From: an uncultured bacterium
GTDB taxonomy: Bacteria; Bdellovibrionota; JACOXK01; 2-02-FULL-40-11
Assembly (NCBI GenBank): GCA_964392415.1
Contig: CAYMPL010000001.1
Location: 6,200-70,199 of the forward strand
DNA: 64,000 nt
Reading direction: 5' to 3'
Shown here piece after piece: positions 357 to 59,401 of this stretch. The translations under genes and the position numbers were made by a program. The stretch's first letter is position 1, and each line of letters begins with the position of its first letter. Under the pieces are notes generated by a model. It had not been told where the DNA came from. It searched no databases and was given only the letters and a program-made list of their open reading frames with translations.

Positions 357-1280
357 ATGTCCACCGGTTCATTTAAAAAAATTGGTTTAATGGCAAAAGA
401 GGGGAATAAAAAGGCGGCTGAAACCGCAAAAAAAATTATCCCCTGGCTCCAGAGAAAAAAATGTGAAGTATTGCTTCCGAAGGAAATATTTTCAACCATA
501 GGATGGGAAAAAACACGTTTCGCAGGCTTTGGAAAACTTGTTCCCTTAGCTTCTTTATCGAAAGAGGTCGATTTGATCCTTTCTTTGGGGGGGGATGGGA
601 CTTTTTTAAAGTCCGTCAGACTTCTTCATGGGCGCAAATGCCCCGTTGTTGGAGTTAAGCTGGGAGGGGTGGGTTTTCTGACAGATATTTTACCCGCAGA
701 GGTTGAAAAAGGGCTTGAACTCATTTTTAATAAAAAGGCTGTGATAGAGGAACGTGTTAAGCTCAAAGCGAAAATTTTGCGATTGGAAAAGGGGGTGGAA
801 GAGGGTGCGAAAAAAGAGGTCGCTTCTTTTGAAGCATTAAATGATGCGGTATTACATACCTCTGGTATTGCAAGAATTTCGAGCTACCATATCTCTATTG
901 GGGCTGACCATTTCACAACACTTAATGCTGACGGAGTGCTTGTGGCAACCCCTACAGGCTCAACTGCCTATTCTTTTGCGGCCGGGGGGCCGGTCACACA
1001 TCCAGAGGCCAAAGTGCTCATTGTAACTCCGATCTGTCCCCAAAATCTGGCGAATCGCCCCCTGATTGTCGCTGACGAAACTAAAATTGCTATAGAGCTT
1101 GTCTCACACAACAGTGAGGTTTTGCTTACGATGGATGGTCAGGAGACATATATAATGAAGGAAGGAGATACCGTTTGGATATCCAAATCCGATCATTCTG
1201 CCTATTTTTTGGGACACTCTCAGAAAAAATACCTCGAGTCGCTCAGAAATAAACTTTTTTTGGAGCCAGACTTTTCTTGA
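357..1280 (+). CDS. nadK: NAD(+) kinase
   Basis: GGDGTFL motif and NADGVLVATPTGSTAYSFAAGGP motif; the alternative ATG at 390 may be the true start because the divergent rarA gene begins at 299. Confidence 0.9.
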   Translation: MSTGSFKKIGLMAKEGNKKAAETAKKIIPWLQRKKCEVLLPKEIFSTIGWEKTRFAGFGKLVPLASLSKEVDLILSLGGDGTFLKSVRLLHGRKCPVVGVKLGGVGFLTDILPAEVEKGLELIFNKKAVIEERVKLKAKILRLEKGVEEGAKKEVASFEALNDAVLHTSGIARISSYHISIGADHFTTLNADGVLVATPTGSTAYSFAAGGPVTHPEAKVLIVTPICPQNLANRPLIVADETKIAIELVSHNSEVLLTMDGQETYIMKEGDTVWISKSDHSAYFLGHSQKKYLESLRNKLFLEPDFS

Positions 1281-2992: not shown

Positions 2993-3751
2993 TTATCTCC
3001 TCTTCCCAAAGATTCCTTCCCCGACTCTTACTTGCGTCGCCCCCTCTTCAATCGCAATTTTAAAATCATGTGTCATTCCCATTGAAAGCTCCCTCAGCGA
3101 AAGATTTGGGAATGCTTTCTGAGTTTCCAATAATAATTCCCTCATCTTCCTAAAATAAGGGCGTGATTTTTCGGGGTCTTTAAAATAGGGGGGGATGGCC
3201 ATGAGCCCCTGGATATCCAAATAGGTCATTCTGGGCGGAGATTGTTCGAGAATGTCATTCTGAGGCTGAGGCTTGAAAATGTCATTCTGAGGCTCGAAGA
3301 GCCGAAGAATCTCATTTAAAAATGGAATAAGATTTTTAGGAAAAAGCCCTGATTTTGTTGTTTCTTCGCCAATATTGATTTGAATCAGAACTGGCAGACG
3401 GCGATTTTTCTTTTGCAGCTCCTGTTGAAGCTTTGTGGATAACTTTAGGCTATCAAGCGTTTGAATTTCTGAAATGGTATCCGTCAAATATTTGACTTTG
3501 TTCGTCTGAAGGTGGCCAATAAAAATCCATTTTGCGGCATTTCCCAGAATTTCCCATTTTTTGAGGAATTCCTGGACATGGTTTTCACCGAGATAGCTGA
3601 TTCCCGCATCCATCGCCAATTTGATCTTTTCGATCGGTTGTAATTTGGAAACAGCAATCAGCCGGATATCTTGAGGATTTTTTCCGATTTTTTTCGCGGT
3701 TTCAGAGATAATTTGTCGGACAGAGGCGATATTTTCTTTTATATCATTCAC
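2993..3751 (-). CDS. yggS: YggS-family pyridoxal-phosphate homeostasis protein (alanine racemase-fold); carries an in-frame insertion of the dispersed repeat element
   Basis: N-terminus [10 protein letters not shown]...GENHVQE matches YggS/PLPHP; the internal [17 protein letters not shown] stretch is encoded by repeat copies at 3254-3314. Confidence 0.85.
3254..3314. repeat. Dispersed repeat family copy (double head + hairpin core + tail), in frame inside yggS
   Basis: GTCATTCTGAGGCTGAGGCTTGAAAATGTCATTCTGAGGCTCGAAGAGCCGAAGAATCTCA. Confidence 0.8.
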
Positions 3752-9627: not shown

Positions 9628-11409
9628 GTGGGGAGAGTCACTCAAATCAAAGCGGCGATTCATTTAGCTATTTTTTCACTTCTGGGGGGATCCTTCGTCG
9701 CTTCGCTCCTCTGGATGACACCCTTGCTCCTCTGGATGACACCATTTGATGCGGCGGCTGACCCAAAATTTCCTTTTTTTCAACAGGCTTCTTTTTCACT
9801 CACCAGAGTCGAGCGGGACAAAACTGAAAACAGACTTTCGCGTATGACGCCTGAAGAAAAAATCGGTCAGCTTCTTATGGTAGGGATCAGAGGGAAGCGA
9901 CTCACCCCTGGAACCGAGCGGCTTATTAAAAAATTAAAACTGGGGGGTGTTATTTTTTACGCTCATAATATTGATGATCCGGTTCAGCTTCGCCAGTTTA
10001 CTTCCGCGATTCAGCATGTGGCATCCTTGGATCACAGGATTCCACTTTTTATATCGGTCGACCAGGAAGGGGGATCGGTTGCGCGGATTCGGAAAGGGGT
10101 TTACTCTTTTCCTCCGCCAATGGCGATTGGAGCCACAGGTTCGCTCCAGCTTTCGTATATGGTCGGCAAAATGATGGCGCTCGACCTCTCTGCGATGGGG
10201 ATTAACATGAATTTGGCCCCTGTTCTCGACGTCAATACGGAACAAGAAAATCAGCTGATCGGAATCCGGTCATTCGGGGGGGATCCTGAACTCGTGGCTC
10301 AAATGGGAATGTGGTACATTGAAGGACTTCAATCGCGGGGAGTTGTTGCAACTGCGAAACACTTTCCGGGGCATGGAAATACCGCGGTCGATTCTCATTA
10401 TGCGATTCCCGCTATTCAGACCGGGCTTTCTGATCTTGAAAAATTTCACCTTCTCCCTTTTAAAAAAGCGATGGAAAATGGTCTCGATGCCCTTATGACA
10501 GCCCATCTTTCGGTGCCAGCGATCGACCCTTCAGGTTTGCCAGCAACATTTTCCTACAATCTTCTGACCGAAGTGGTTCGTAAAAAAATGAACTATCAGG
10601 GGCTCATCGTGACAGATGATCTCGAGATGAAGTCGATTCGTAACAGATATGGAGTGGGGGAAGCGGCGCTCAAAGCCATTTTGGCAGGATCAGATGTCGT
10701 GATGGTTAGTTGGACGGATGAGAAAAAAACAGAGGTTTTTAACGCACTTCTAACTGCCTATCGGGAAGGGAAGCTGACAGAAGAGAGGCTGAACGAATCG
10801 GTTCGACGGATTCTTAAATTGAAATATCAGCGGGGTTTTTTTGATGCTGTTCGGGAGCCTGCATCCCTAAATCCAAAATGGCTGACCCATTCCGCGCACC
10901 AAAAGCTTCTTAGCCAAATTGCTGCGAAGGCGATAACGATGGTTTTCAACAAAGGGGTGCTCCCGTTAAAGGAAGAGGATCCTCGAAAGGTGCTTTTGGC
11001 GACCCCATTCAATCTTTTTTACGAGGAGCTTAAATTTTATCATGAGGATCTGAGTTCTTTAAAAATTCCAAATCGTCCTACCATTTCAGAAATTGAGACA
11101 ATTGTTTCAAACATTACTGAACTGAAAAATGAAATCGATCTGCTCATGATAGGCCTGACACACAGGTCACAACTTCCACTGGTTCAAAGGCTTTCCCAAA
11201 ATATAAAAAAACCGATTGTAGTTATTTCTTTTGAGTCCCCCTACCTCATTCATGAGATAAAGAAAATTTCAGAGATTTCTGCCTTCCTCTGCAGCTATGG
11301 CACCCAGCCGGAGCTTGTCCGCGCAACTGCTGAGTCCCTGGTCGGAATCATTCATCCCACAGGGAAAAGTCCCGTCTTGAGCATGGAAACGGCATCGATT
11401 AACAAATAA
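9628..11409 (+). CDS. nagZ: Beta-N-acetylhexosaminidase, glycoside hydrolase family 3 (NagZ-like) with signal peptide
   Basis: KIGQLLMVGI, ISVDQEGG, KHFPGHG, LIVTDDLEM GH3 motifs. Confidence 0.85.
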   Translation: MGRVTQIKAAIHLAIFSLLGGSFVASLLWMTPLLLWMTPFDAAADPKFPFFQQASFSLTRVERDKTENRLSRMTPEEKIGQLLMVGIRGKRLTPGTERLIKKLKLGGVIFYAHNIDDPVQLRQFTSAIQHVASLDHRIPLFISVDQEGGSVARIRKGVYSFPPPMAIGATGSLQLSYMVGKMMALDLSAMGINMNLAPVLDVNTEQENQLIGIRSFGGDPELVAQMGMWYIEGLQSRGVVATAKHFPGHGNTAVDSHYAIPAIQTGLSDLEKFHLLPFKKAMENGLDALMTAHLSVPAIDPSGLPATFSYNLLTEVVRKKMNYQGLIVTDDLEMKSIRNRYGVGEAALKAILAGSDVVMVSWTDEKKTEVFNALLTAYREGKLTEERLNESVRRILKLKYQRGFFDAVREPASLNPKWLTHSAHQKLLSQIAAKAITMVFNKGVLPLKEEDPRKVLLATPFNLFYEELKFYHEDLSSLKIPNRPTISEIETIVSNITELKNEIDLLMIGLTHRSQLPLVQRLSQNIKKPIVVISFESPYLIHEIKKISEISAFLCSYGTQPELVRATAESLVGIIHPTGKSPVLSMETASINK

Positions 11410-11511: not shown

Positions 11512-12201
11512 ATGAAAAAAAGGGGCATCATTATAATAGCCATCATTTCTCTGTTCGTTTCTATCTCCAAGGCGGCTCCTCAAGAGACTCAGGAAGAATT
11601 AACACAGGCCCATCTCGGTGAAACCGCCTTTTTACTGCGGAAAAAAGAACTTCTTTTAGGGCTTAGGCAAACAGCGTACGGAATTTTTGACTGGTTTTCA
11701 CTGGAGACGATTCCGCTTTATGATCTATTTGGATCGTGGAATATTTTTGGAAAATTAAAATTAGTTGCGATCGACCCTGTCAGTTTAGCGGCCCGTGCCG
11801 GTATTTTTTATCTGACGCTGGAAGAGCTTCCTGAAGCTCAGCCATCTTCAATGTACCGCGTCTATTTTGGCGGCACTTTATCAGCAAAAGTGGATGATTT
11901 CATCCATTATCATTTGAATATCAATAACACGAGCTTACATGGCAATATCATTTTTGGAAATGACATGATACACATTAAAAAACTTCTTAATATTGAAAAC
12001 GACCTTGAATATAAATTTAATGACCGGCGTTCCGTAGTGGGCGCCGCTGGTTATAATGTTTCAACCAAAAAGGTTTCATTAGGGGGGAGTCATGTGTGGA
12101 GATGGTCAACTTTTCATCTAAAGCTTGGACTCACCTTTAGAACAGGGATTTCCCGGGGGCTTACAATGCTCCCCTTCTTCGATCTTGGTATTCGGTTTTA
12201 A
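11512..12201 (+). CDS. Hypothetical secreted protein (possible outer-membrane beta-barrel)
   Basis: Signal peptide MKKRGIIIIAIISLFVSISKA; start trimmed from 11476 because a sigma-54-like motif occupies 11477-11492. Confidence 0.4.
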   Translation: MKKRGIIIIAIISLFVSISKAAPQETQEELTQAHLGETAFLLRKKELLLGLRQTAYGIFDWFSLETIPLYDLFGSWNIFGKLKLVAIDPVSLAARAGIFYLTLEELPEAQPSSMYRVYFGGTLSAKVDDFIHYHLNINNTSLHGNIIFGNDMIHIKKLLNIENDLEYKFNDRRSVVGAAGYNVSTKKVSLGGSHVWRWSTFHLKLGLTFRTGISRGLTMLPFFDLGIRF

Positions 12202-13131: not shown

Positions 13132-14136
13132 ATGGATGTCGTTATTTCAAATCATAGTCATTATCCGCGAGTTGGGGATCTGAAAGATCAACTCAAATTA
13201 AGGAAGGCATATCATCAATACGATCATAAAAAGATCGATCTCGAAAAATTAAAAAAGGTCGAAGAAGAGACGATTCGGGATATCATTAAAGAGCAGCAAA
13301 CCGCAAAGCTCGATATTGTGACCGATGGTCTTATCAGATGGAATGACCCTGTTTCTTATTTCATGAAGCGCCTTGAGGGGGTTGAAATTGGGGGGCTTCT
13401 CAGATTCTTTGATACCAATTTTTATTTTAGACAGCCGCAAATTATGGGAAAGCTCTCTCTTAAAGAGCCTTGTTTTAAAAAAGATCTTCTCTTTTTGAGA
13501 GCTGGGACAGATGCCGATATAAAGCTTGTGCTGACAGGGCCCTATACGCTGGCGCTCCTCTCAAACATAGCCACGCCGCATTATCAATCGGTTGAGGAAG
13601 TTTCCGAAGCGCTGACAGAGCTGCTCGTCGAAGAGTTCAAATCGATTAAAGAGATGGGGATCCCCTATATTCAAATTGAGGAGCCCGGCTATCTTTTAAC
13701 TCCGCCAGACTGGAAGTGGGCATCCTCGTTGATTAAGAAGTTGGCGGCCCATCAGGGGAATTCAAAGCTGATCCTTGCCACTTATTTTGGTGACGCCGCT
13801 CCTTATTATTCAAAGCTTGAGAATCTTCCCGTCGATATTTTGGGATTCGATACAACCTATTCGCCGGGACTTCTAGAAAGTCTTCGAAAGGAAGGGAGCC
13901 GAAAGGAAATTCAACTTGGGCTTCTGGATGGCCGGAATACGAAACTTGAAAGTCCGGATGAAGTTGTCGGAGTCCTTCATTCTCTTGAAAAAACTTGGAG
14001 GCGGCTGATTCTTACCACCTCTTGCGGGCTTGAGTATCTTTCGAGAGACAGGGCTTTTGACAAGCTCAATCTCTTACAGGAAATTAAATATGCGTACCAG
14101 GGTAAAAACCAAACATCTAAAATCAAAAAGGGATAG
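13132..14136 (+). CDS. Stand-alone homolog of the N-terminal domain of cobalamin-independent methionine synthase MetE
   Basis: Aligns by eye with E. coli MetE residues 1-340: HYPRVG/FPRVG, FDTNFYF/FNTNYHY, LTGPYT/LGPVT, IQIEEP/VQIDEP, LATYFGD/LTTYFEG, TTSCGL/ASSCSL. Confidence 0.75.
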   Translation: MDVVISNHSHYPRVGDLKDQLKLRKAYHQYDHKKIDLEKLKKVEEETIRDIIKEQQTAKLDIVTDGLIRWNDPVSYFMKRLEGVEIGGLLRFFDTNFYFRQPQIMGKLSLKEPCFKKDLLFLRAGTDADIKLVLTGPYTLALLSNIATPHYQSVEEVSEALTELLVEEFKSIKEMGIPYIQIEEPGYLLTPPDWKWASSLIKKLAAHQGNSKLILATYFGDAAPYYSKLENLPVDILGFDTTYSPGLLESLRKEGSRKEIQLGLLDGRNTKLESPDEVVGVLHSLEKTWRRLILTTSCGLEYLSRDRAFDKLNLLQEIKYAYQGKNQTSKIKKG

Positions 14137-14140
14137 AGGT

Positions 14141-15148
14141 ATGAGAACAGAAGAAAACAAATTAAAAAATTTAGGGATTCAATTACCCATTTTTCCATTG
14201 ACTTCGGTCGGGAGTTTCCCAAAATTCGACTATATCAAGAAAGGACGGAGCTGCTTTGAAAAAGGGGAGATTGGCGCAAATGATCTCCTGACTCTTGAAA
14301 AAAAGGCGACAGAGGAGTGGATTCAATTTCAGGAAGAAATTGGAATCGATATTCTGGTCGATGGTGAAATGTATCGGGGGGATATGGTTGCCTATTTTGC
14401 TGAAAAACTCCCAGGCTTTAAAGAAGGGGGTTTTGTTCGATCGTATGGAAATCGATTTTACAAAAAGCCGGTCATTTCAGAGGCTGTCGGATGGGAGAAG
14501 CCGCTCACAGTAGATTGGTGGAAATTTGCGCAATCTTTGACTCGCAAACCGGTAAAGGGGATGCTCACCGGTCCCTATACCATTATGGATTGGTCCTTTA
14601 ATGAACATTATAAGGACCGTGAAGCAGCAGCGCTTGCATTGGCTAAGGTGATCCGAAAGGAAGTGGAGGCATTGATTGATGCCGGGGCAAAGATTATTCA
14701 GGTCGATGAGCCTGCCTGTTCTGTGCGCCCCAAAGAACTTCCGTTGGTCGTGAGGACGATGGATATTGTGACAAGAGATCTCCCGGCCTATTTTGTAACA
14801 CACATCTGTTATGGCGATTTTGAGAAAATATATCCGGAGATGAATGAAATTCCAGTCGACAACTATGATCTTGAAATGTCGAACAGTGAAAACGATCTGC
14901 TTAATTGTTTCAGAAAGGTTCATATGCCAAAGGATCTCTCGGCAGGGATTGTAGATGTTCACACGCATCAAATTGAAGAGCATGCTCTTTTAATGAAGCG
15001 TTTGCGTGATATCTTGGAAGTGGTTTCCCCCTCTCAGCTCTGGGTCGATCCCGATTGTGGGCTTAAGACGCGGACGGTCGACGAGGCGAAAGAGAAATTG
15101 AAAGCAGTGGTAAAAGCAGTGAAGGCGTTGAGGGCCCAGTCATCCTGA
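14141..15148 (+). CDS. metE: Core methionine synthase (MetE C-terminal catalytic domain only, with zinc/homocysteine-binding motifs)
   Basis: VGSFPK, KPVKGMLTGPYTI (identical block to E. coli MetE), IQVDEPA, THICYGDF (His/Cys ligands), VDPDCGLKTR; RBS GAGGT before the ATG at 14141. Confidence 0.85.
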   Translation: MRTEENKLKNLGIQLPIFPLTSVGSFPKFDYIKKGRSCFEKGEIGANDLLTLEKKATEEWIQFQEEIGIDILVDGEMYRGDMVAYFAEKLPGFKEGGFVRSYGNRFYKKPVISEAVGWEKPLTVDWWKFAQSLTRKPVKGMLTGPYTIMDWSFNEHYKDREAAALALAKVIRKEVEALIDAGAKIIQVDEPACSVRPKELPLVVRTMDIVTRDLPAYFVTHICYGDFEKIYPEMNEIPVDNYDLEMSNSENDLLNCFRKVHMPKDLSAGIVDVHTHQIEEHALLMKRLRDILEVVSPSQLWVDPDCGLKTRTVDEAKEKLKAVVKAVKALRAQSS

Positions 15149-15170
15149 GGGCGAAGCCCGAAGGATCCCA
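15139..15170. repeat. Dispersed repeat family copy; its TGA is the stop codon of core-metE
   Basis: GTCATCCTGAGGGCGAAGCCCGAAGGATCCCA. Confidence 0.85.
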
Positions 15171-16607: not shown

Positions 16608-16692
16608 GTCATCCTGAGGGCGAATGCCCGAAGGATCTCATTCGTAAGTGACGAGATTCTTCGCTCAGAATGACCGCTGCTCAGAATGACAA
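16608..16692. repeat. Dispersed repeat copy followed by inverted partial copies (composite palindrome) after ctpA
   Basis: GTCATCCTGAGGGCGAATGCCCGAAGGATCTCA ... GAGATTCTTCGCTCAGAATGAC ... GCTCAGAATGAC. Confidence 0.8.
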
Positions 16693-17462: not shown

Positions 17463-18581
17463 TCATTGAAAAAGGTGTTGGTTAATAGTATCTAGCCCCT
17501 TTATATCGTAGATGTCTTGGGCAAAAAAAGGGATTTCGTAAACTGGTACACCTGCGGTGGGCGCTGCTGTGGAGAGAGATTTTTTAAATTGTTCTGTTTC
17601 CATTCTTTCTCTTTTGGCAAGCTCTTCCCACTGCTCGAAGATTTCAAGTTTCACCCGCTCGTTCTTTGACATTTTTGGTTTCATGTTTTCCAGCGTTTTT
17701 CTTTGGGACGAATAGGCATCCGCTGTCAAGGGAATGTCAGCTAAAATCCGGTTGATGATGATCCCTCCAAACGGAAGTTTCATTCCAGTAAGCCTTTCAT
17801 AAAAACGAAAGGCTTCTTCAAGCATTCTCCTTTCAGGGACAGTTGCAAGTAAAAAAGCGGTTTCATGACTCCCCAAAATTTCTCTGGCTTTTAGTGTTCG
17901 TTCCCGAAAACCGGTATAGAGCGTTTGTAAATTGATAAAAAATTCTGACAATTCATAAAAGAGCTGAAGGCCTGTGAATCGCTCGATGATTTTAAAAACA
18001 AAATAAGAGCCTGCCGACAAAAACTGAATGCTCAATTTTCCTGCTAGAAAATAGGGTTTGAGAAACCATTTTAGAATATTTTCATCGAGAAAATTGGAAA
18101 GTCTTTCCGGGGCTTCCAGAAAATTGAGCGCGTGTTTTGCTGGAGGGGTGTCGATGACGATGAAGTCATAATGGTTTTCCTTCCAAAGCTCGTAGAGTTT
18201 TTCAAGGGCCATATAGTCCCGTGTTCCCGCAAGCATCGTTGAGAGATACTGATAGATCCGGTTTCCCAGAATTTTATCAATAATTTCCTGGGACGGCGCG
18301 TACTGGCGTATCAGTTGATCCAGTGTCTCTTTGGTATCGAGCATCATCGCCCAAAGTTTCACATCCTTACTGAGAGGAATTGCCTTTGGGCGATGGTCGA
18401 ACTGATCAAACCCGAGGGTTTGCGCGAGCCTTTTTGCTGGATCGATCGTCAAGACGAGTGTTTTTTTCCCGGACTTTGCCGCATGTACGGCAATAGCGGC
18501 GGAAAGGGTCGTTTTTCCCACCCCTCCGCTCCCCGAAACGATAACCACTTTTTTGGTTTTTAGAATATCAGCTAAGCCCAT
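17463..18581 (-). CDS. ArsA/GET3-family P-loop ATPase (second of a tandem pair)
   Basis: SGSGGVGKTT deviant Walker A, DTPP switch region. Confidence 0.8.
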   Translation of the reverse strand: MGLADILKTKKVVIVSGSGGVGKTTLSAAIAVHAAKSGKKTLVLTIDPAKRLAQTLGFDQFDHRPKAIPLSKDVKLWAMMLDTKETLDQLIRQYAPSQEIIDKILGNRIYQYLSTMLAGTRDYMALEKLYELWKENHYDFIVIDTPPAKHALNFLEAPERLSNFLDENILKWFLKPYFLAGKLSIQFLSAGSYFVFKIIERFTGLQLFYELSEFFINLQTLYTGFRERTLKAREILGSHETAFLLATVPERRMLEEAFRFYERLTGMKLPFGGIIINRILADIPLTADAYSSQRKTLENMKPKMSKNERVKLEIFEQWEELAKRERMETEQFKKSLSTAAPTAGVPVYEIPFFAQDIYDIKGLDTINQHLFQ

Positions 18582-19501
18582 TGTTTTTCGATTTCCTTGC
18601 CGAGTTTTTTAAGAGCGGAGAGATCAGGCGCTTCCTTTAAAATCCAGGGGATCTTAAAGCTTTTTTTTGACAACTCTTTCTCAAGGCGGTCTTCATACGA
18701 TTGCTGGATCTTTTGTCTTGTTTGATAATGAAGGAGGGTCTGTTCTATCTTTTTAAGGAGTGAGCCCATGTCATTCTGAGAGCCCCAAAGTCCAATAGTT
18801 CGAAGAATCCCATTATTTTCAAAAGCCTCCAGTTTTTTATTTAAAAACAGTTCTCCCATCGGAAGTCTTAGTTTTTTGATTTCATTAAAAAGCTCGAGGG
18901 TTTCCTGAACAGGGAGTTCTTCAGGAATAGTAACCAGATGAATCGCTGTCTCTTTTTTTTCGGTGAGCATCGAATAGATTTTTTGGGATTGCTCCGCCAG
19001 GGGGCCTTTTTGAGTCAAATCGATAAAGACCTTTGGAATTTTAAAAAGATAAAGAGCGTGGCCTGTTGCGGGGGCGTCAACAATCAAAATATCCCAGCGG
19101 GGTTTCTTTCCGGAACGCTCATCGCTCAGGTAATACATTTTTCCGATCAACGCCATTTCTTCCACCCCTGGGGCCGCTTTCACAAAAAAATGGAAAATCT
19201 TATTTTCAAAGATGAGATCATATATTTTTTCGATCTTTATCTGACGGATAATAAATTCTCTAAGAGAGGACAAAGGATCGATCAAAACCCCATCAATGTT
19301 TGGGGCAAGCGGTTTGGGGGTCATCGTCCCTTTTTCAGTGTTAAAAAGGCACGATACTGGGCTTTCAGGATCGAGATCGATCAGAAGTACTTTTTTCCCC
19401 CGGCTTGCTGCGATGAGAGCGAAAAGAGACGCAATCGTGGTTTTCCCGACCCCCCCCTTTCCGGTGAAAAAATGAAGTCTCTGCTGAAATAGCGATGTCA
19501 T
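18572..19501 (-). CDS. ArsA/GET3-family P-loop ATPase (first of a tandem pair)
   Basis: TGKGGVGKTT, DAPATGHAL; 10-nt overlap with the downstream paralog. Confidence 0.8.
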   Translation of the reverse strand: MTSLFQQRLHFFTGKGGVGKTTIASLFALIAASRGKKVLLIDLDPESPVSCLFNTEKGTMTPKPLAPNIDGVLIDPLSSLREFIIRQIKIEKIYDLIFENKIFHFFVKAAPGVEEMALIGKMYYLSDERSGKKPRWDILIVDAPATGHALYLFKIPKVFIDLTQKGPLAEQSQKIYSMLTEKKETAIHLVTIPEELPVQETLELFNEIKKLRLPMGELFLNKKLEAFENNGILRTIGLWGSQNDMGSLLKKIEQTLLHYQTRQKIQQSYEDRLEKELSKKSFKIPWILKEAPDLSALKKLGKEIEKQWA

Positions 19502-22899: not shown

Positions 22900-22999
22900 T
22901 GGCGGAAGTGTATGGGAATCGAACCCACCACAGACATAGAGACTATGTCTGTCACTGGATTTGAAGTCCAGGAAGTACACCAGAAACTTAAACACTTCC
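22900..22999 (-). tRNA. selC: tRNA-Sec (selenocysteine tRNA, anticodon UCA), 100 nt including encoded CCA
   Basis: Reverse complement reads GGAAGTGT (8-bp acceptor stem pairing with ACACTTCC), anticodon stem-loop CTGGA-CTTCAAA-TCCAG (UCA), long variable arm TGACAGACATAGTCTCTATGTCTG, T arm GGGTTCGATTCCC, discriminator G, CCA. Confidence 0.85.
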
Positions 23000-26197: not shown

Positions 26198-27253
26198 ATG
26201 TTAAGCAATATGAAATATAAACCTTTGATTTTTTTGACACTATTTTTATCTCTGAGCATGAATGAGACTTGGGCGGATGACCGCTATTTGAGTCCAGACA
26301 AGAAGATGGAGCTGATTCATGGGGGGATAGTTTATCTCGCAAAAAACCAAAAAATGGATGGAAGGTGGGAGCATCCGCAATATCCTACGGCTGTGACAGC
26401 ACTCTCTGCACTATCGATTTTGGGGATGGGGCACACACCGCACCGCGGGCCTTATCAAGAGACACTGACAAAGGCCGTAGATCTTTTACTTTCCGCTCAA
26501 AGAGAAAAGGATGGTTTGATTGCGATTCCGGGAGAGCAACGGTCGATGTATGGACATGGGTTTTCAACCCTCTTTTTAAGCCAGGTCTTTGGAATGAGTG
26601 GGGGGATGACGCCAAATTCTCGAATTAAAAATGCGCTCCAAAATGCTGTCGATCTTATTGTAAAGAGTCAGAATGATAAAGGGGGCTGGTATTACGAGCC
26701 CTTTTCATTCGACGATGAAGGGACGATCACGATTGTTCAAATTCAGGCGCTTCGGGGGTGCAGAGATGTGGGCATAGTTGTTCCCAAAGAGACGATTGAA
26801 AAGGCTTTGGATTATGTCAAAAAATCTCAATATGAGAACGGCGGAATCGCTTATGGCGTGGGACCGTCAGGAAATGCTACGCCGGCGTTGACCTCAGCAG
26901 GGATGGCGGTTTTATTTAATGCGGGGGAATATGATGTTACGGAGGTTCATGCCAAAGGTTTCCGGTATTTAGATGAGCAATTTAAAGAATTCTTAACAGG
27001 GTCAGAAAAAAAAGAGGTGGGAGGTGGTCACTTTCTTTACACTCATTTTTACGCGTCACAAGTTTATAAATTGCGCGGGGGATTTTATAGGGAAGATTAT
27101 TTTCGGGTTATTGAGAAGGTCTTAGAAGAACAAATGAAAGGCACAGGTGGAGAGAGATTTTGGGATATTGAAGAAGGCCCCTTTTATTCAACCGCAATGG
27201 CGCTTTTAATTTTGGAGATGGAACTTGAATACCTTCCGATATTTACGGATTAA
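26198..27253 (+). CDS. Secreted prenyltransferase/squalene-oxidase-repeat (PFTB, terpenoid-cyclase fold) protein
   Basis: Signal peptide; four QxxxGGW-type repeats (QKMDGRWEH, QREKDGL, QNDKGGWYY, QYENGGIAY). Confidence 0.7.
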   Translation: MLSNMKYKPLIFLTLFLSLSMNETWADDRYLSPDKKMELIHGGIVYLAKNQKMDGRWEHPQYPTAVTALSALSILGMGHTPHRGPYQETLTKAVDLLLSAQREKDGLIAIPGEQRSMYGHGFSTLFLSQVFGMSGGMTPNSRIKNALQNAVDLIVKSQNDKGGWYYEPFSFDDEGTITIVQIQALRGCRDVGIVVPKETIEKALDYVKKSQYENGGIAYGVGPSGNATPALTSAGMAVLFNAGEYDVTEVHAKGFRYLDEQFKEFLTGSEKKEVGGGHFLYTHFYASQVYKLRGGFYREDYFRVIEKVLEEQMKGTGGERFWDIEEGPFYSTAMALLILEMELEYLPIFTD

Positions 27254-27255
27254 CC

Positions 27256-27342
27256 GTCATTCCGAGGGACAAAGTCCCGAGGAATCTCTGTCATTGCGAG
27301 CGGGGCGTGTGTCATTCCGAGCACGGAGTGCGAGGAATCTCA
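27256..27342. repeat. Three tandem repeat-family units between the PFTB protein gene and the FGE-domain gene
   Basis: GTCATTCCGAGGGACAAAGTCCCGAGGAATCTC / TGTCATTGCGAGCGGGGCGTGT / GTCATTCCGAGCACGGAGTGCGAGGAATCTCA. Confidence 0.85.
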
Positions 27343-29102
27343 TTTCCCTGATCTCAATTTTTCTTTTTTCATCTTCTGTAGTGTCACACGCAGAAGATAA
27401 AGTGATTTACCAAAATGATCACCGTGCTGTAAGAAAAGCGAAGGGAAAAGATATTTCCATTTACGTCGATGCGCAGTTTAAGAGGGCGAGAGAAGCAAAG
27501 ACATATAATGAGGCGTGGGATACGTATGTTGTCATTCAAAAAGAGATCCCGGAAGAACTCATTTTAATAGAGGGGACAGATGTCATTCCGAGCGCGAAGC
27601 ACGAGGAATCTGCTCGCCTGATGTCATGGAAAGAGATGAGAGCGCTCTTACTCGAAGCAAAGCAAAATGAAAGCTCGAAAGCAGCGTCTCAATTTTTAGA
27701 CTCTCCATTAGGAGCGGAACCTTCTGAAGAGCCGTTTCAAAAAGCTTGGAATGAGGCCACAGAAGATCTTGATTTTAGCCCCCACGATGGATTTCAATTC
27801 GCATGGCTTTTAGCGCCTTATCTTCCCACACAAACAGGAGGTCTCTGGGCTGAAAAGATGGGAGATGCGTATGTTGAAGAGGGGAATTACCTTCGGGCGT
27901 ATGCTCAATATAAGGCAATTAAAGATCATTCAATCGCTCATAATGAACGAATCGAGAAAAAATTAAATTACGTTATAAATGGTTTGGGAAAACGCCTCCA
28001 TAGAATTAAAAAAGCAAGCGCACTTAAGGGATTAAAGCTCAGCGATGGGACGGTCTATCGGCTGGTGGTAGAAGAATTGGGGATGCACAAGGAAAAGACC
28101 CTCTTTTTGGAGATTGCGTATCAAAAAGGAAAAGTCATTCAAAAGAGAATAGATGATGCTGAGTTGACACATCTCAATTCAAAAAAATATGGTCATTTTC
28201 TTATAAGGGATGGGGACAAGATTTTGCTCATGCCACCGCCCTGGAACAGATATCTCATATTTGACTTAAATGGGATGCTTTTAGAAAAAGTTTTCACCAA
28301 AGAAGAGATAGCTTCCCGATACGGAATTAAAAACATAAATGAACTTTTGTTTTCAAGGCATGGTTTTAGACTTATTTCCAGAGGAATCTTTAACATGGGG
28401 AGCCCACCTGATGAAGAGGGAAGAGGTGGTGATGAAACCTTACATTCTGTTACAATTACGAAAGATTTTTATCTGCAAAAGACGGAAGTGACCCAGCTTC
28501 AGTGGTATCTTGTTATGGGTGAAACGCCTTCGTGTTTTCGAGGAGAATGGTATTGCAAAGAAGAGTGGGATGAAGAGTTAAAGATTTGTCCAAATCATCC
28601 TGTGGAGCAAGTATCGTGGGATAATATTCAGATCTTTATTCAAAAGCTAAACGAGATGCAGAGTAAATATGTTTATAGACTTCCGACAGAAGCGGAGTGG
28701 GAGTATGCGGCACGCGGGGGGACGACAACACCATTTTATTTTGGAGAGACGATATTTTCTGACCAAGCCAATTACAATGGAGATGGCACTTATAAAGACG
28801 GTCATAAAGGAATTTATAGAGTGAAAACGATTCCGGTTTGCAGTCTAGGTCAGCCGAACGCATGGGGCTTATTTGATATGCATGGAAATGTGTGGGAGTG
28901 GGTTTCTGATTGGTATGGAGGATATCCCGCTGGAAGCGTGGTTGATCCGGAGGGGCCTCCCTCAGGCTCGCTCCGCGTTTTCCGCGGGGGCAGTTGGCGC
29001 AACTACCCGCATTATTACTTGCGGTCCGCGAGTCGTTACTCCAATTCGCCGGACTACAGCTACGATGGCGTCGGTTTCCGACTCGCGAGGACAAAGAAGT
29101 AA
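27309..29102 (+). CDS. Secreted protein with C-terminal formylglycine-generating-enzyme (FGE-sulfatase/SUMF1) domain; GTG start inside a repeat element proposed
   Basis: C-terminus has EQVSWDNIQ, RLPTEAEWEYAARGG, HGNVWEWVSDWY, RGGSW, GFRLAR FGE-sulfatase motifs; the signal peptide RARSARNLISLISIFLFSSSVVSHA begins within repeat copy 27311-27342. Confidence 0.75.
   Translation: MSFRARSARNLISLISIFLFSSSVVSHAEDKVIYQNDHRAVRKAKGKDISIYVDAQFKRAREAKTYNEAWDTYVVIQKEIPEELILIEGTDVIPSAKHEESARLMSWKEMRALLLEAKQNESSKAASQFLDSPLGAEPSEEPFQKAWNEATEDLDFSPHDGFQFAWLLAPYLPTQTGGLWAEKMGDAYVEEGNYLRAYAQYKAIKDHSIAHNERIEKKLNYVINGLGKRLHRIKKASALKGLKLSDGTVYRLVVEELGMHKEKTLFLEIAYQKGKVIQKRIDDAELTHLNSKKYGHFLIRDGDKILLMPPPWNRYLIFDLNGMLLEKVFTKEEIASRYGIKNINELLFSRHGFRLISRGIFNMGSPPDEEGRGGDETLHSVTITKDFYLQKTEVTQLQWYLVMGETPSCFRGEWYCKEEWDEELKICPNHPVEQVSWDNIQIFIQKLNEMQSKYVYRLPTEAEWEYAARGGTTTPFYFGETIFSDQANYNGDGTYKDGHKGIYRVKTIPVCSLGQPNAWGLFDMHGNVWEWVSDWYGGYPAGSVVDPEGPPSGSLRVFRGGSWRNYPHYYLRSASRYSNSPDYSYDGVGFRLARTKK
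27582..27612. repeat. Repeat-family unit in frame inside the FGE-domain protein gene
   Basis: GTCATTCCGAGCGCGAAGCACGAGGAATCTG, encoding VIPSAKHEES. Confidence 0.75.
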
Positions 29103-31910: not shown

Positions 31911-31960
31911 GTCATCCTGAGCCAAGGCGAGAGTCATCCTGAGCGAAGCGAAGGATCTCA
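31911..31960. repeat. Repeat-family copy (double head) between the convergent oppF-like and response-regulator genes
   Basis: GTCATCCTGAGCCAAGGCGAGAGTCATCCTGAGCGAAGCGAAGGATCTCA. Confidence 0.85.
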
Positions 31961-32467
31961 CCGTATCTGCAAATGCATAATCGTCCGAACGGTCTCTGTG
32001 ATTTCATGGATATTGAAAGGCTTCGTAATGTAGTCGTGGGCGCCGAGCTGGAAGGCAAGTTTTTTATCCATTTCGCTTTTTCGGCCTGAAATAAAGACGA
32101 CCGGCACATTTTTGAGATCGTCATGCTCTTTGAGAAGTTTACAGAGTTCAAAACCGTCGACCCAGGGGAGGTTAATATCAAGAAGAATCAATTCAATTGA
32201 TTGAGATTCAAGGAGTTGAACGAGATCTGTGGCATCTTGCGCGAGATATACCTCGTAGCCCTCTTTTTCAAAGAGTCTCTTTAAGACACTGCGCGTTGAG
32301 GGGTCATCATCTACGACCAAAAGGTGCTGCGGGGCGCTTTTTCGTTTGATACTTCGATATTCATCCAGGGAAACAACCTTTTCCCCGACGATTTTTCTCT
32401 TTTTAATCCGCTCGATTTCTGAAGCAAGTTTTTTTGTGGAGACCGCTTTTGGGTCAAGTTTTGACAT
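31958..32467 (-). CDS. Single-domain response regulator (CheY-like receiver) with short N-terminal extension
   Basis: LLVVDDD...LLDINLPWVDG...VVFISG...K receiver motifs. Confidence 0.8.
   Translation of the reverse strand: MSKLDPKAVSTKKLASEIERIKKRKIVGEKVVSLDEYRSIKRKSAPQHLLVVDDDPSTRSVLKRLFEKEGYEVYLAQDATDLVQLLESQSIELILLDINLPWVDGFELCKLLKEHDDLKNVPVVFISGRKSEMDKKLAFQLGAHDYITKPFNIHEITETVRTIMHLQIR

Positions 32468-38518: not shown

Positions 38519-38522
<4 letters not shown>
37227..38522 (+). CDS. cysN: Sulfate adenylyltransferase subunit 1 (GTPase)
   Basis: GSVDDGKST G1 motif, DVPGHEQY, NKMD. Confidence 0.85.
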
Positions 38523-40528
<2,006 letters not shown>

Positions 40529-47690: not shown

Positions 47691-47721
47691 GTCATCCTGA
47701 GGGCGAAGCCCGAAGGATCTC
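47691..47721. repeat. Repeat-family copy between the convergent queuosine-cluster gene and the lipoprotein gene
   Basis: GTCATCCTGAGGGCGAAGCCCGAAGGATCTC. Confidence 0.85.
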
Positions 47722-56528: not shown

Positions 56529-59320
<2,792 letters not shown>

Positions 59321-59334
59321 AGGTGTAAAAAAAT

Positions 59335-59401
59335 GTCATCCTGAGCCCGAAGGGCGAAGGATCTCCATCGGAGATTCCTCACGCTTTGCGTTCGGAATGA
59401 C
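59335..59401. repeat. Inverted pair of repeat-family units forming a long palindrome just after the eno stop codon
   Basis: GTCATCCTGAGCCCGAAGGGCGAAGGATCTCC atcg GAGATTCCTCACGCTTTGCGTTCGGAATGAC. Confidence 0.85.

Follow-up and report, generated by a model that had tools for sequence, protein, structure and literature searches.

The window analysed here is a stretch of 64,000 nt from a free-living uncultured bacterium. At the locus of interest, a gene for a secreted protein resembling SQHop cyclases/prenyltransferases is followed by a gene for a protein with an FGE-sulfatase domain, and a cluster of short hairpin repeats lies at the junction of the two. Five lineages carry the N-terminal domain of this FGE protein, namely that of the window and those represented by P0002 (L001), P0004 (L002), P0003 (L003) and P0007 (L004), and the orthologous proteins share 55-65% identity. 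Profile searches of 5.8 billion proteins and 1.84 billion representatives returned the same five lineages, a small sample for comparison, the other matches being FGE-domain-only. The features of the locus are as follows.

26198-27253, plus strand: upstream gene, secreted SQHop-cyclase/prenyltransferase-like protein (Pfam PF13243), syntenic with L001, L002 and L003
27256-27288, plus strand: unit 1, a full hairpin, GTCATTCCGAGGGACAAAGTCCCGAGGAATCTC, with the tag CGTC, the stem ATTCC/GGAAT, a GA/GA internal loop, GGGAC-AAA-GTCCC and the tail CTC
27279-27283, plus strand: SD-like GAGGA in the tail of unit 1, within the 3' arm of its hairpin and 10 nt 5' of TTG 27294
27290-27310, plus strand: unit 2, a head-only partial, GTCATTGCGAGCGGGGCGTGT, made up of GTCATTGCGAG and 10 further nt, 21 nt before unit 3
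27294-27296, plus strand: TTG candidate start inside unit 2, with the product MRAGRVSFRARSARN followed by the hydrophobic core
27309-27311, plus strand: GTG candidate start, whose third base is the first base of unit 3, with the product MSFRARSARN followed by the hydrophobic core
27311-27341, plus strand: unit 3, a full hairpin, GTCATTCCGAGCACGGAGTGCGAGGAATCTC, with the frame S-F-R-A-R-S-A-R-N-L, a positively charged n-region
27309-29102, plus strand: FGE-sulfatase-domain gene (Pfam PF03781, E = 3.8e-49), drawn from GTG 27309, although initiation may in fact be at 27294 or 27225
27339-27392, plus strand: signal-peptide hydrophobic core and cleavage region, LISLISIFLFSSSVV-SHA and then EDK; a hydrophobic core and a small-x-small site are conserved in all five orthologs
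27582-27611, plus strand: internal full unit, GTCATTCCGAGCGCGAAGCACGAGGAATCT, in frame as VIPSAKHEES, a net seven-codon insertion relative to the unit-free L004

The cluster at 27256-27341 is a tandem of three units, full, head-only and full, of a hairpin repeat with the consensus (Y)GTC-ATTCY-GA-[stem/loop]-GA-RGAAT-CTC. The tag is CGTC in the unit at 27256 and TGTC in those at 27290, 27311 and 27582. Full units fold into a 5-bp stem (ATTCC/GGAAT), a GA/GA internal loop and an upper stem of varying length, and the predicted folds of units 1 and 3 have energies of -14.5 and -12.6 kcal/mol, respectively, the latter with z = -2.8. The head motif is strongly over-represented, with 13 copies in the 64-kb window compared with 1.87 expected, a number reached in 0 of 100 shuffles. 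The repeat units reported in an earlier note on this DNA are thus real; the analysis places three at 27256-27341 and one at 27582-27611. A scan for promoters and terminators found none in the junction, and an Rfam scan of the whole window and of 27100-27750 found no family matching the units. The upstream gene ends with TAA at 27251-27253, and its product has an N-terminus (MLSNMKYKPLIFLTLFLSLSMNETWA) that, by inspection of the translation, resembles a signal peptide.

The frame of the FGE gene is intact over 597 codons, and the FGE domain comprises residues 355-594. In frame after GTG 27309 the sequence reads SFRARSARN-LISLISIFLFSSSVVSHA, as the earlier note had translated it. A Kyte-Doolittle mean of 2.28 was obtained for the core, LISIFLFSSSVV, and S-H-A precedes E at the cleavage site; the net charge before the core is +3 from GTG 27309 and +5 from TTG 27294. 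The window therefore contains the features of a Sec-type signal peptide: a positive n-region, a hydrophobic core and small residues at -3 and -1. Across the five orthologs, the 12-residue Kyte-Doolittle mean of the core is 2.3-2.9, and a small-x-small site (SHA|ED, SHS|EE, SFA|EE, LYA|ND and SLA|EE) lies directly before a conserved (V/I)IY.DDH mature start. These features, together with the secreted nature of the conserved upstream partner, indicate that the signal peptide of the FGE protein is real. As this applies to all five orthologs, translation would have to start upstream of the core.

The canonical in-frame starts are TTG 27225, TTG 27294, GTG 27309, GTG 27381 and GTG 27402. Only the first three lie 5' of the core; GTG 27381 is inside its C-terminal end and GTG 27402 is 3' of it. 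This listing bears out the earlier observation that no ATG precedes the hydrophobic core. The accompanying claim that GTG 27309 is the sole in-frame start does not hold, as TTG 27294 and TTG 27225 are also in frame upstream of the core and GTG 27381 and GTG 27402 are in frame downstream. Initiation at either of these downstream codons would leave the repeats extragenic, the protein cytoplasmic and the apparent signal peptide an untranslated leader. Two automated public annotations of the identical protein follow this course, P0123 (573 aa) beginning at 27381 and P0001 (PGAP) at 27402, and both omit the signal peptide. Di Nocera et al. (PMC3733652) have moreover warned that REPs in N-terminal coding regions are frequently annotation artefacts, the elements themselves often being extragenic. 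However, the core and the cleavage motif are open and in frame in five orthologs despite sequence divergence, and L004 has no start between the core and the conserved mature region. Furthermore, 27381, within the C-terminal end of the core, and 27402 lack an SD-like sequence, with anti-SD duplex energies of 0 and -1.8 kcal/mol, respectively. A downstream start with extragenic repeats is thus decidedly unlikely. Given that the five orthologs conserve the core and that the sequence from unit 3 to the core contains no canonical start, translation of unit 3 as the n-region SFRARSARN is almost certain, and we infer that this peptide works as the n-region of the signal peptide. The proposal that repeat units donate both the start codon and the n-region was therefore sound for the translation of unit 3, but GTG 27309 is one of two plausible starts.

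These two starts, TTG 27294 and GTG 27309, appear about equally likely from the sequence. Their anti-SD duplex energies are -5.9 and -7.0 kcal/mol, respectively, where the reference medians are -5.65 kcal/mol for long ATG-started ORFs of the window and -3.0 kcal/mol for random positions. The case for TTG 27294 is at least as good as that for GTG 27309, since the former has the SD-like GAGGA 10 nt upstream, whereas in the predicted fold the latter takes part in the pairing at the foot of the hairpin of unit 3 (-12.6 kcal/mol). According to these folds, the hairpins at GTG 27309 and at the GAGGA serving TTG 27294 should impede initiation unless melted. The hairpin of unit 1 begins at 27259, so that its base would be within reach of a ribosome ending at 27251-27253, which could thereby free the GAGGA for re-initiation. 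As for the origin of the GTG, attributed earlier to the junction of two repeat units, unit 3 does indeed begin with its last base, but it is not a product of mere chance, as T precedes GTCATTC in 99 of 156 units among the matches listed from the wider family described below. At the position of GTG 27309, the corresponding unit has ATG or TTG in L001 and L002.

TTG 27225 lies 29 nt within the upstream gene, and a start there would mean that all three units are translated and that 41 residues precede the core. GGAG is found 7 nt upstream of it (-7.1 kcal/mol), and the TTG and the open frame occur at all four syntenic loci. That conservation, however, is due to the coding constraint of the upstream gene itself (ELEYLPIFTD), the n-region would be unusually long with four acidic residues, and a more suitably placed ATG with AAGGA follows the stop codon in L001 and L002. 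Initiation at TTG 27225 thus seems very improbable, and its dismissal in the earlier note as a spurious start is plausible.

The junction has a history that can be followed in three of the other lineages. In L001, L002 and L003, the SQHop-like gene is also the neighbour of the FGE gene, and a partial head followed by a full unit occupies the same junction in the same frame (S-F-R...R-N-L), the composites reading SFRTRSHSWRSVRNL, SFRARSHSWRSARNL and SFRAQRARNL, respectively. The full junction unit is 31 nt long at the loci of the window and L003; L001 and L002 have 46-nt versions, and this difference of 15 nt, being a multiple of three, preserves the frame. The partial unit of L001 reads TCA TTC TGG, where the consensus of the T-variant, TCA TTC TGA, would give a stop. 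For L001, initiation is likely at the ATG forming the leading part of the partial unit, which AAGGA precedes by 5 nt; L002 has an ATG with the same AAGGA before the composite, as well as two further ATGs at unit heads. In L004, the FGE gene has other neighbours and no units, its signal peptide starts conventionally with ATG (MARTANMSEYRA...), and the candidate starts before the conserved mature region are all upstream of or within the core. A protein search of genome contigs for further orthologous junctions returned the contig of L001 alone, and among metagenome contigs neither a protein profile nor a degenerate pattern for the end of the upstream gene revealed an orthologous junction. An exact-protein look-up of the SQHop-like gene product and of P0123 found no match.

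The only canonical start near the core of L003 is an ATG two codons past the unit, with GAGGAA 11 nt upstream (-5.9 kcal/mol), and the signal peptide read from this ATG has no charged n-region. The charge may therefore be dispensable and the unit may be untranslated in L003. By analogy, the units of the window could act merely as the donor of a ribosome-binding site for a non-canonical start after unit 3, ATT 27342 or CTG 27348, yielding a signal peptide that likewise lacks a charged n-region. ATT 27342 is 5 nt past the GAGGA of unit 3, CTG 27348 aligns with the ATG of L003, and GAGGAATCTC-ATT is present in both the window and L001; the GAGGAA of L003, before its sole nearby canonical start, comes from the unit itself. 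Nevertheless, bacteria very rarely use ATT or CTG as start codons, the GAGGA is paired within the predicted hairpin, and neither the conservation of the frame, nor the 15-nt (3n) difference in unit length, nor the change of TGA to TGG in L001 would be explained. A start beyond unit 3 is for these reasons highly improbable in the window, and translation through unit 3 from TTG 27294 or GTG 27309 is preferred.

Unit 1 is confined to the lineage of the window and sits where L001 and L002 have AAGGA and ATG. The junction reads TAA-CC-(unit 1)-TGTCATTG in the window and TAA-AGGATTAGTC-ATGTCATTC in L001. Where L001 has ATG before the partial head, the window has CTG, the place of AAGGA is taken by unit 1, and from this codon to the head of the full unit there are 23 nt in both. 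The position of unit 1 in the ancestral AAGGA and ATG spot indicates that this start was lost in the window. The earlier note had held that a conventional upstream ATG lost here would imply a disrupted gene, and the first part of this is borne out, since the ATG after AAGGA in L001 and L002 is absent from the window; the frame and the core, however, are intact. That unit 1 destroyed the ancestral start and left a pseudogene only recently disabled at its 5' end is extremely improbable, because nothing is missing from the 597-codon frame, the FGE domain or the signal-peptide core, the same arrangement is present in two more assemblies of the population (L006, 100% identical; L007, ~98%), and in-frame TTG and GTG codons with SD-like sequences are at hand. 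The intactness of frame, domain and core makes the change look like start-codon turnover rather than gene death. L007 does not differ across the repeats and its differences cluster at a scaffold gap, so the polymorphism is uninformative.

The orthologous FGE genes share ~70% nucleotide identity and ~57% at third codon positions, and at the four loci the junction unit hardly varies in its head and tail. In L001, bases 9-11 of the head are GAA rather than GAG, and this change is offset by a compensating change in the tail. Between L001 and L002, 43 of the 46 positions of the long unit agree (93%), and one of the differences is a compensatory change of G-C to A-T in the stem. Units are also more alike in type within one genome than among positional counterparts between genomes. 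The constraint on the junction unit suggests that the hairpin is under selection or, alternatively, that conversion among family members has led to concerted evolution. One could go further and regard the unit as a selected, portable cassette for initiation and export, in which the tail GAGGAAT would serve as the SD sequence, the NTG before the next head as the start and S-F-R..R-N-L as the n-region. The hairpin would then hide the SD sequence until a ribosome finishing translation of the upstream gene, 3-6 nt away, opened it, and this opening would couple the synthesis of two secreted partners. If true, such a cassette would account for the preservation of the junction hairpin by compensatory changes and for a unit identity of 93% between L001 and L002, against 70% for the genes. 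We regard a selected cassette as unlikely, and an insertion that was simply tolerated is the more economical explanation. The suggestion that these elements are exapted as coding sequence is accordingly divided: units do lie in frame in the FGE gene and in other genes of the window, but selection for a role is a less economical assumption than tolerance.

The unit inside the FGE gene, which the earlier note had seen in frame as VIPSAKHEES, is an in-frame insertion that the window shares with L002 and L003 but not with L001 and L004. In the window the site reads GGG ACA GAT (GTC ATT CCG AGC GCG AAG CAC GAG) GAA TCT GCT CGC, and L004 reads GGG ATC GAC CAA GAA TCT GCT CGC; in L002 and L003 the site holds a partial and a full unit as a composite, and in L001 and L004 it holds none. 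On a star-like tree, this pattern demands at least two events, whether gains or losses. No target-site duplication is evident at the site, where the unit-free L004 already has GAATCT at the point at which the tail of the unit ends. The AlphaFold model, built from a six-row alignment, had a mean pLDDT of 36.8, too low for any placement of the internal unit, in a loop or elsewhere.

The FGE gene is not the only gene of the window that contains the repeat. There are ~12 unit loci in the window, 5-6 of them intergenic at gene 3' ends and 6-7 overlapping coding sequence; those outside the FGE gene and its junction include the following.

3254-3313, plus strand: partial and full unit, antisense in the YggS (PLP homeostasis) gene (2993-3751, minus strand), encoding 20 residues
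9687-9741, plus strand: full and partial unit, reversed, in the N-terminal region of a GH3 glycosidase ORF, GSFVASLLWMTPLLLWMTP; its coding status depends on the start
15139-15169, minus strand: unit within which a MetE-like gene (14030-15148, plus strand) ends, so that its final three codons and its stop are covered
16608-16690, minus strand: intergenic tail-to-tail doublet between convergent genes, consisting of a partial and a full unit, a spacer and an inverted unit
18770-18812, plus strand: unit antisense in an ArsA/Get3-like ATPase ORF (18572-19501, minus strand), residues 230-244, a putative insertion
31911-31959, minus strand: full and partial unit between convergent genes, touching the stop of a response-regulator gene (31958-32467, minus strand)
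38538-38576, plus strand: unit in the 5' coding part of the APS kinase (CysC) gene, 13 residues (7-19)
47691-47721, minus strand: single unit between convergent genes
59335-59401, minus strand: intergenic tail-to-tail doublet just past the enolase gene (58037-59320, plus strand)

The copies in CysC and YggS are, from their sequences, unambiguously in frame. In CysC, ATG 38519, which overlaps the upstream stop as ATGA, is the sole start before the P-loop, so the unit would be translated as residues 7-19. In YggS, the region comprises 35 residues as compared with 11 in E. coli YggS (1w8g), and the surplus of ~24 residues is the repeat. The composite in the GH3 ORF comes directly after a hydrophobic N-terminal stretch.

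The repeat family is much more widespread than the window. The pattern GTCATTCYGAG-N(5-35)-YGARGAATCTC, searched for in IMG/VR, matches in at least 120 contigs of very different compositions. The units measure 27-57 nt and consist of 5 bp, the GA/GA internal loop, 2-10 more pairs and a loop of 3-5 nt. The paired bases of the hairpin covary: among the matches listed, the closing pair of the stem in 134 distinct units is T-A in 78, C-G in 52 and mismatched in 4, and the pair past the GA/GA loop in the same 134 units is G-C in 104, A-T in 18 and C-G in 5. The base before GTC in 156 units among the matches listed is T in 99 (63%) and C in 54 (35%). ATG precedes the head in 5 of 11 window copies but is not part of the consensus, as AT stands before the head in 20 of 156 units among the matches listed.

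Reading frames differ between two variants of the unit. In the C-variant (ATTCC...GGAAT) stops are rare, being present in 3-6 of 55 units per sense frame, whereas every T-variant unit carries TGA in the S-F frame. All units of the FGE genes are of the C-variant or mutated away from the stop. The idea that five of the six frames are always open was discarded owing to this TGA of the T-variant, and openness of all three sense frames is limited to the C-variant. By a crude estimate among the matches listed, 44% of IMG/VR units lie deep in open frames of at least 150 codons, compared with 80% of random positions.

The family seems undescribed so far: a full-text search of the literature with the head and tail strings returned primers only and no published description of the consensus. 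Blastn of the units against plasmid and phage records gave no match, and tblastn with the Y1 transposase of L002 found nothing in the 64-kb window; the IS200-like Y1 gene of L002 is itself not flanked by units.

Taken together, the evidence makes it probable that a REP-like element was inserted in frame at the 5' coding end of the FGE gene, was tolerated there and now supplies the start codon and the Arg-rich n-region. The cluster occupies the 55-nt gap from the stop codon of the SQHop-like gene to the signal-peptide core, and FGE translation would begin within it, at TTG 27294 or GTG 27309, with unit 3, read as S-F-R-A-R-S-A-R-N-L, forming the charged n-region of its Sec-type signal peptide. 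The composite of a head-only and a full unit was probably present at the junction in the common ancestor of the four lineages and has stayed in frame ever since. In the lineage of the window, unit 1 would subsequently have landed on the ancestral AAGGA and ATG, and initiation would have moved a few codons downstream into the repeats; which codon is now used we infer from the candidate starts compared above. The unit at 27582-27611 is a second, internal in-frame insertion, and it and the cluster both appear to be instances of a genome-wide habit. Because the C-variant is nearly stop-free in the three sense frames, in-frame copies at permissive sites such as N-termini and loops would survive selection, as with the RPEs of Rickettsia and intragenic REPs.

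If so, a free-living uncultured lineage joins the few bacteria that routinely carry palindromic repeats inside proteins. The repeat here would moreover be more than a loop passenger, as it would supply a start and an n-region and has been kept at the same site over ~35-45% protein divergence. There may also be a practical consequence, since two public annotations drop the signal peptide, and gene callers that mis-start genes in this way would bias localisation predictions for repeat-rich MAGs. As the family is abundant in environmental contigs, it could be useful as a marker, and it could serve in studies of the spread of REP-like elements for which no transposase is obvious.

Among known systems, the CGTC-tagged REP superfamily (Di Nocera, De Gregorio and Rocco 2013, PMC3733652), with Neisseria dRS3 and R. 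conorii RPE-4 and RPE-6 among its members and TGTC and CCTC as variants of the tag, offers close parallels: intragenic members exist and there is no dedicated transposase (PMC3733652). The units of the window are likewise short palindromes with an unpaired 5' tag, CGTC or TGTC, and a stem that opens with A-T pairs (ATTC...GAAT), ATTCY pairing with RGAAT in every unit; they have a 3-nt tail, lie just past ORFs or between convergent genes with some intragenic, and show no evident dedicated transposase. However, CGTC-tagged families have an 8-9 bp stem, a 4-5 nt loop and a CCA tail and occur mostly as head-to-head dimers (PMC3733652), whereas the stem here is broken by a conserved 2x2 GA/GA loop, the upper part is variable so that units range over 27-57 nt, the tail is CTC, and the doublets at 16608-16690, at 59335-59401 and in a further contig (L026) are tail-to-tail. 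Head-only and full composites ~21 nt apart, frequent here, are a further difference. The tie between the present units and RPE-4 or RPE-6 comes from this literature on CGTC REPs (PMC3733652) and not from sequence comparison.

In-frame REP and RPE copies are already known, and what is new is the family, the host, the role in a start and signal peptide, and the retention in four lineages. RPEs are described, in the account of Ogata et al. 2000 given in PMC10969869, as palindromes in frame within unrelated housekeeping genes, kept in orthologs and apparently tolerated where the site is permissive. As far as that account goes, the present units resemble RPEs in lying in frame in unrelated genes (FGE, YggS and CysC) with the host frame kept, and differ from them in size (27-46 nt, as opposed to ~100-150 bp with a conserved peptide), in a host that is a free-living uncultured bacterium and in one copy that forms an N-terminus and the start of a signal peptide. 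The hairpins, inverted doublets and intergenic sites at gene 3' ends are also reminiscent of RAYT-mobilised REP/REPIN elements, but the head is (C/T)GTC rather than GTAG/GTGG and the window has no RAYT gene. Finally, Coxiella QMITEs are small repeats that extend into the ends of genes, to which they contribute terminal residues and stop codons (PMC5896051). They are larger MITEs with terminal inverted repeats, and their reported effects are C-terminal and do not concern starts or signal peptides (PMC5896051); comparable to them is the unit at 15139-15169, which overlaps the stop of the MetE-like gene.

Units of the repeat lie within genes and ORFs other than the FGE-sulfatase-domain (FGE) gene, at the following positions in the window:

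2993-3751, minus strand, YggS/PLP-homeostasis gene, with a repeat at 3254-3313
9628-11409, plus strand, GH3 glycosidase ORF, with units at 9687-9741
18572-19501, minus strand, ArsA/Get3-like ATPase ORF, with a unit at 18770-18812 (residues 230-244)
38519-39109, plus strand, APS kinase (CysC) gene, with a unit at 38538-38576

The repeat in the YggS gene comprises a partial and a full unit, both antisense, and forms an in-frame insertion of ~24 residues relative to E. coli YggS. Residues 7-19 of the APS kinase are the translated unit; the ATG of this gene, which overlaps the stop codon of the upstream gene (ATGA), is the sole start ahead of the P-loop. At the other end of a gene, a unit (15139-15169) supplies the stop and the last three codons of a MetE-like gene.

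The identical FGE protein has been publicly annotated twice with differing GTG starts, at 27381 and 27402 of the window (entries P0123, 573 aa, and P0001, PGAP, partial), and the signal peptide is lost in both annotations. The start of the GH3 ORF is ambiguous too, because the unit tails (GGATGAC) contain two in-frame ATGs; here the units form a full-plus-partial composite in reverse orientation, reading GSFVASLLWMTPLLLWMTP, directly after a hydrophobic N-terminal stretch.

Such composites of a head-only and a full unit are recurrent, and the distance from head to head is exactly 21 nt at the following sites (15-27 nt at a few others):

window, 27290 to 27311 and 9709 to 9730
L001 (locus with an FGE ortholog), 10003 to 10024
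L002 (likewise), 2840 to 2861
L003 (likewise), 1033 to 1054 and 1313 to 1334

This recurrence suggests that the spreading entity may be the composite rather than the single hairpin, or that a stereotyped duplication may be part of the spread. A second arrangement, the tail-to-tail doublet, is found at 16608-16690 and 59335-59401 of the window and at 11939-12015 of the unit-carrying contig L026. The inverted second unit of these doublets has the stem ATCCT/AGGAT, not ATTCY/RGAAT, and the two halves could pair into one longer hairpin, in the manner of a REPIN.

The unit-free ortholog of the FGE gene (L004 2118-2196, compared with window 27534-27633) has GAATCT precisely where the tail of the internal unit ends in the window. 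This motif may reflect microhomology at the site of insertion or, alternatively, be a remnant left by loss of the unit.

One unit with identical flanks (agacatacgcccGTCATTCTGAGGAGCGCCATTTACACGAAGAATCTCggtagtttc...) was found in eight IMG/VR viral contigs from different samples (L014, L015, L019, L020, L037, L040, L044 and L056), and looks like part of a conserved phage locus. The FGE ortholog in L002 is preceded, 1.6 kb upstream, by a gene for an IS200-like Y1 transposase (444-890, minus strand); this transposase gene is not flanked by units, and it has no homolog in the window.

The window has the following gene beside those for a subtilase and a TPR protein:

22904-22999, minus strand, tRNA-Sec gene (Rfam RF01852, 71.5 bits)

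From the presence of this gene, the organism is predicted to use selenocysteine.
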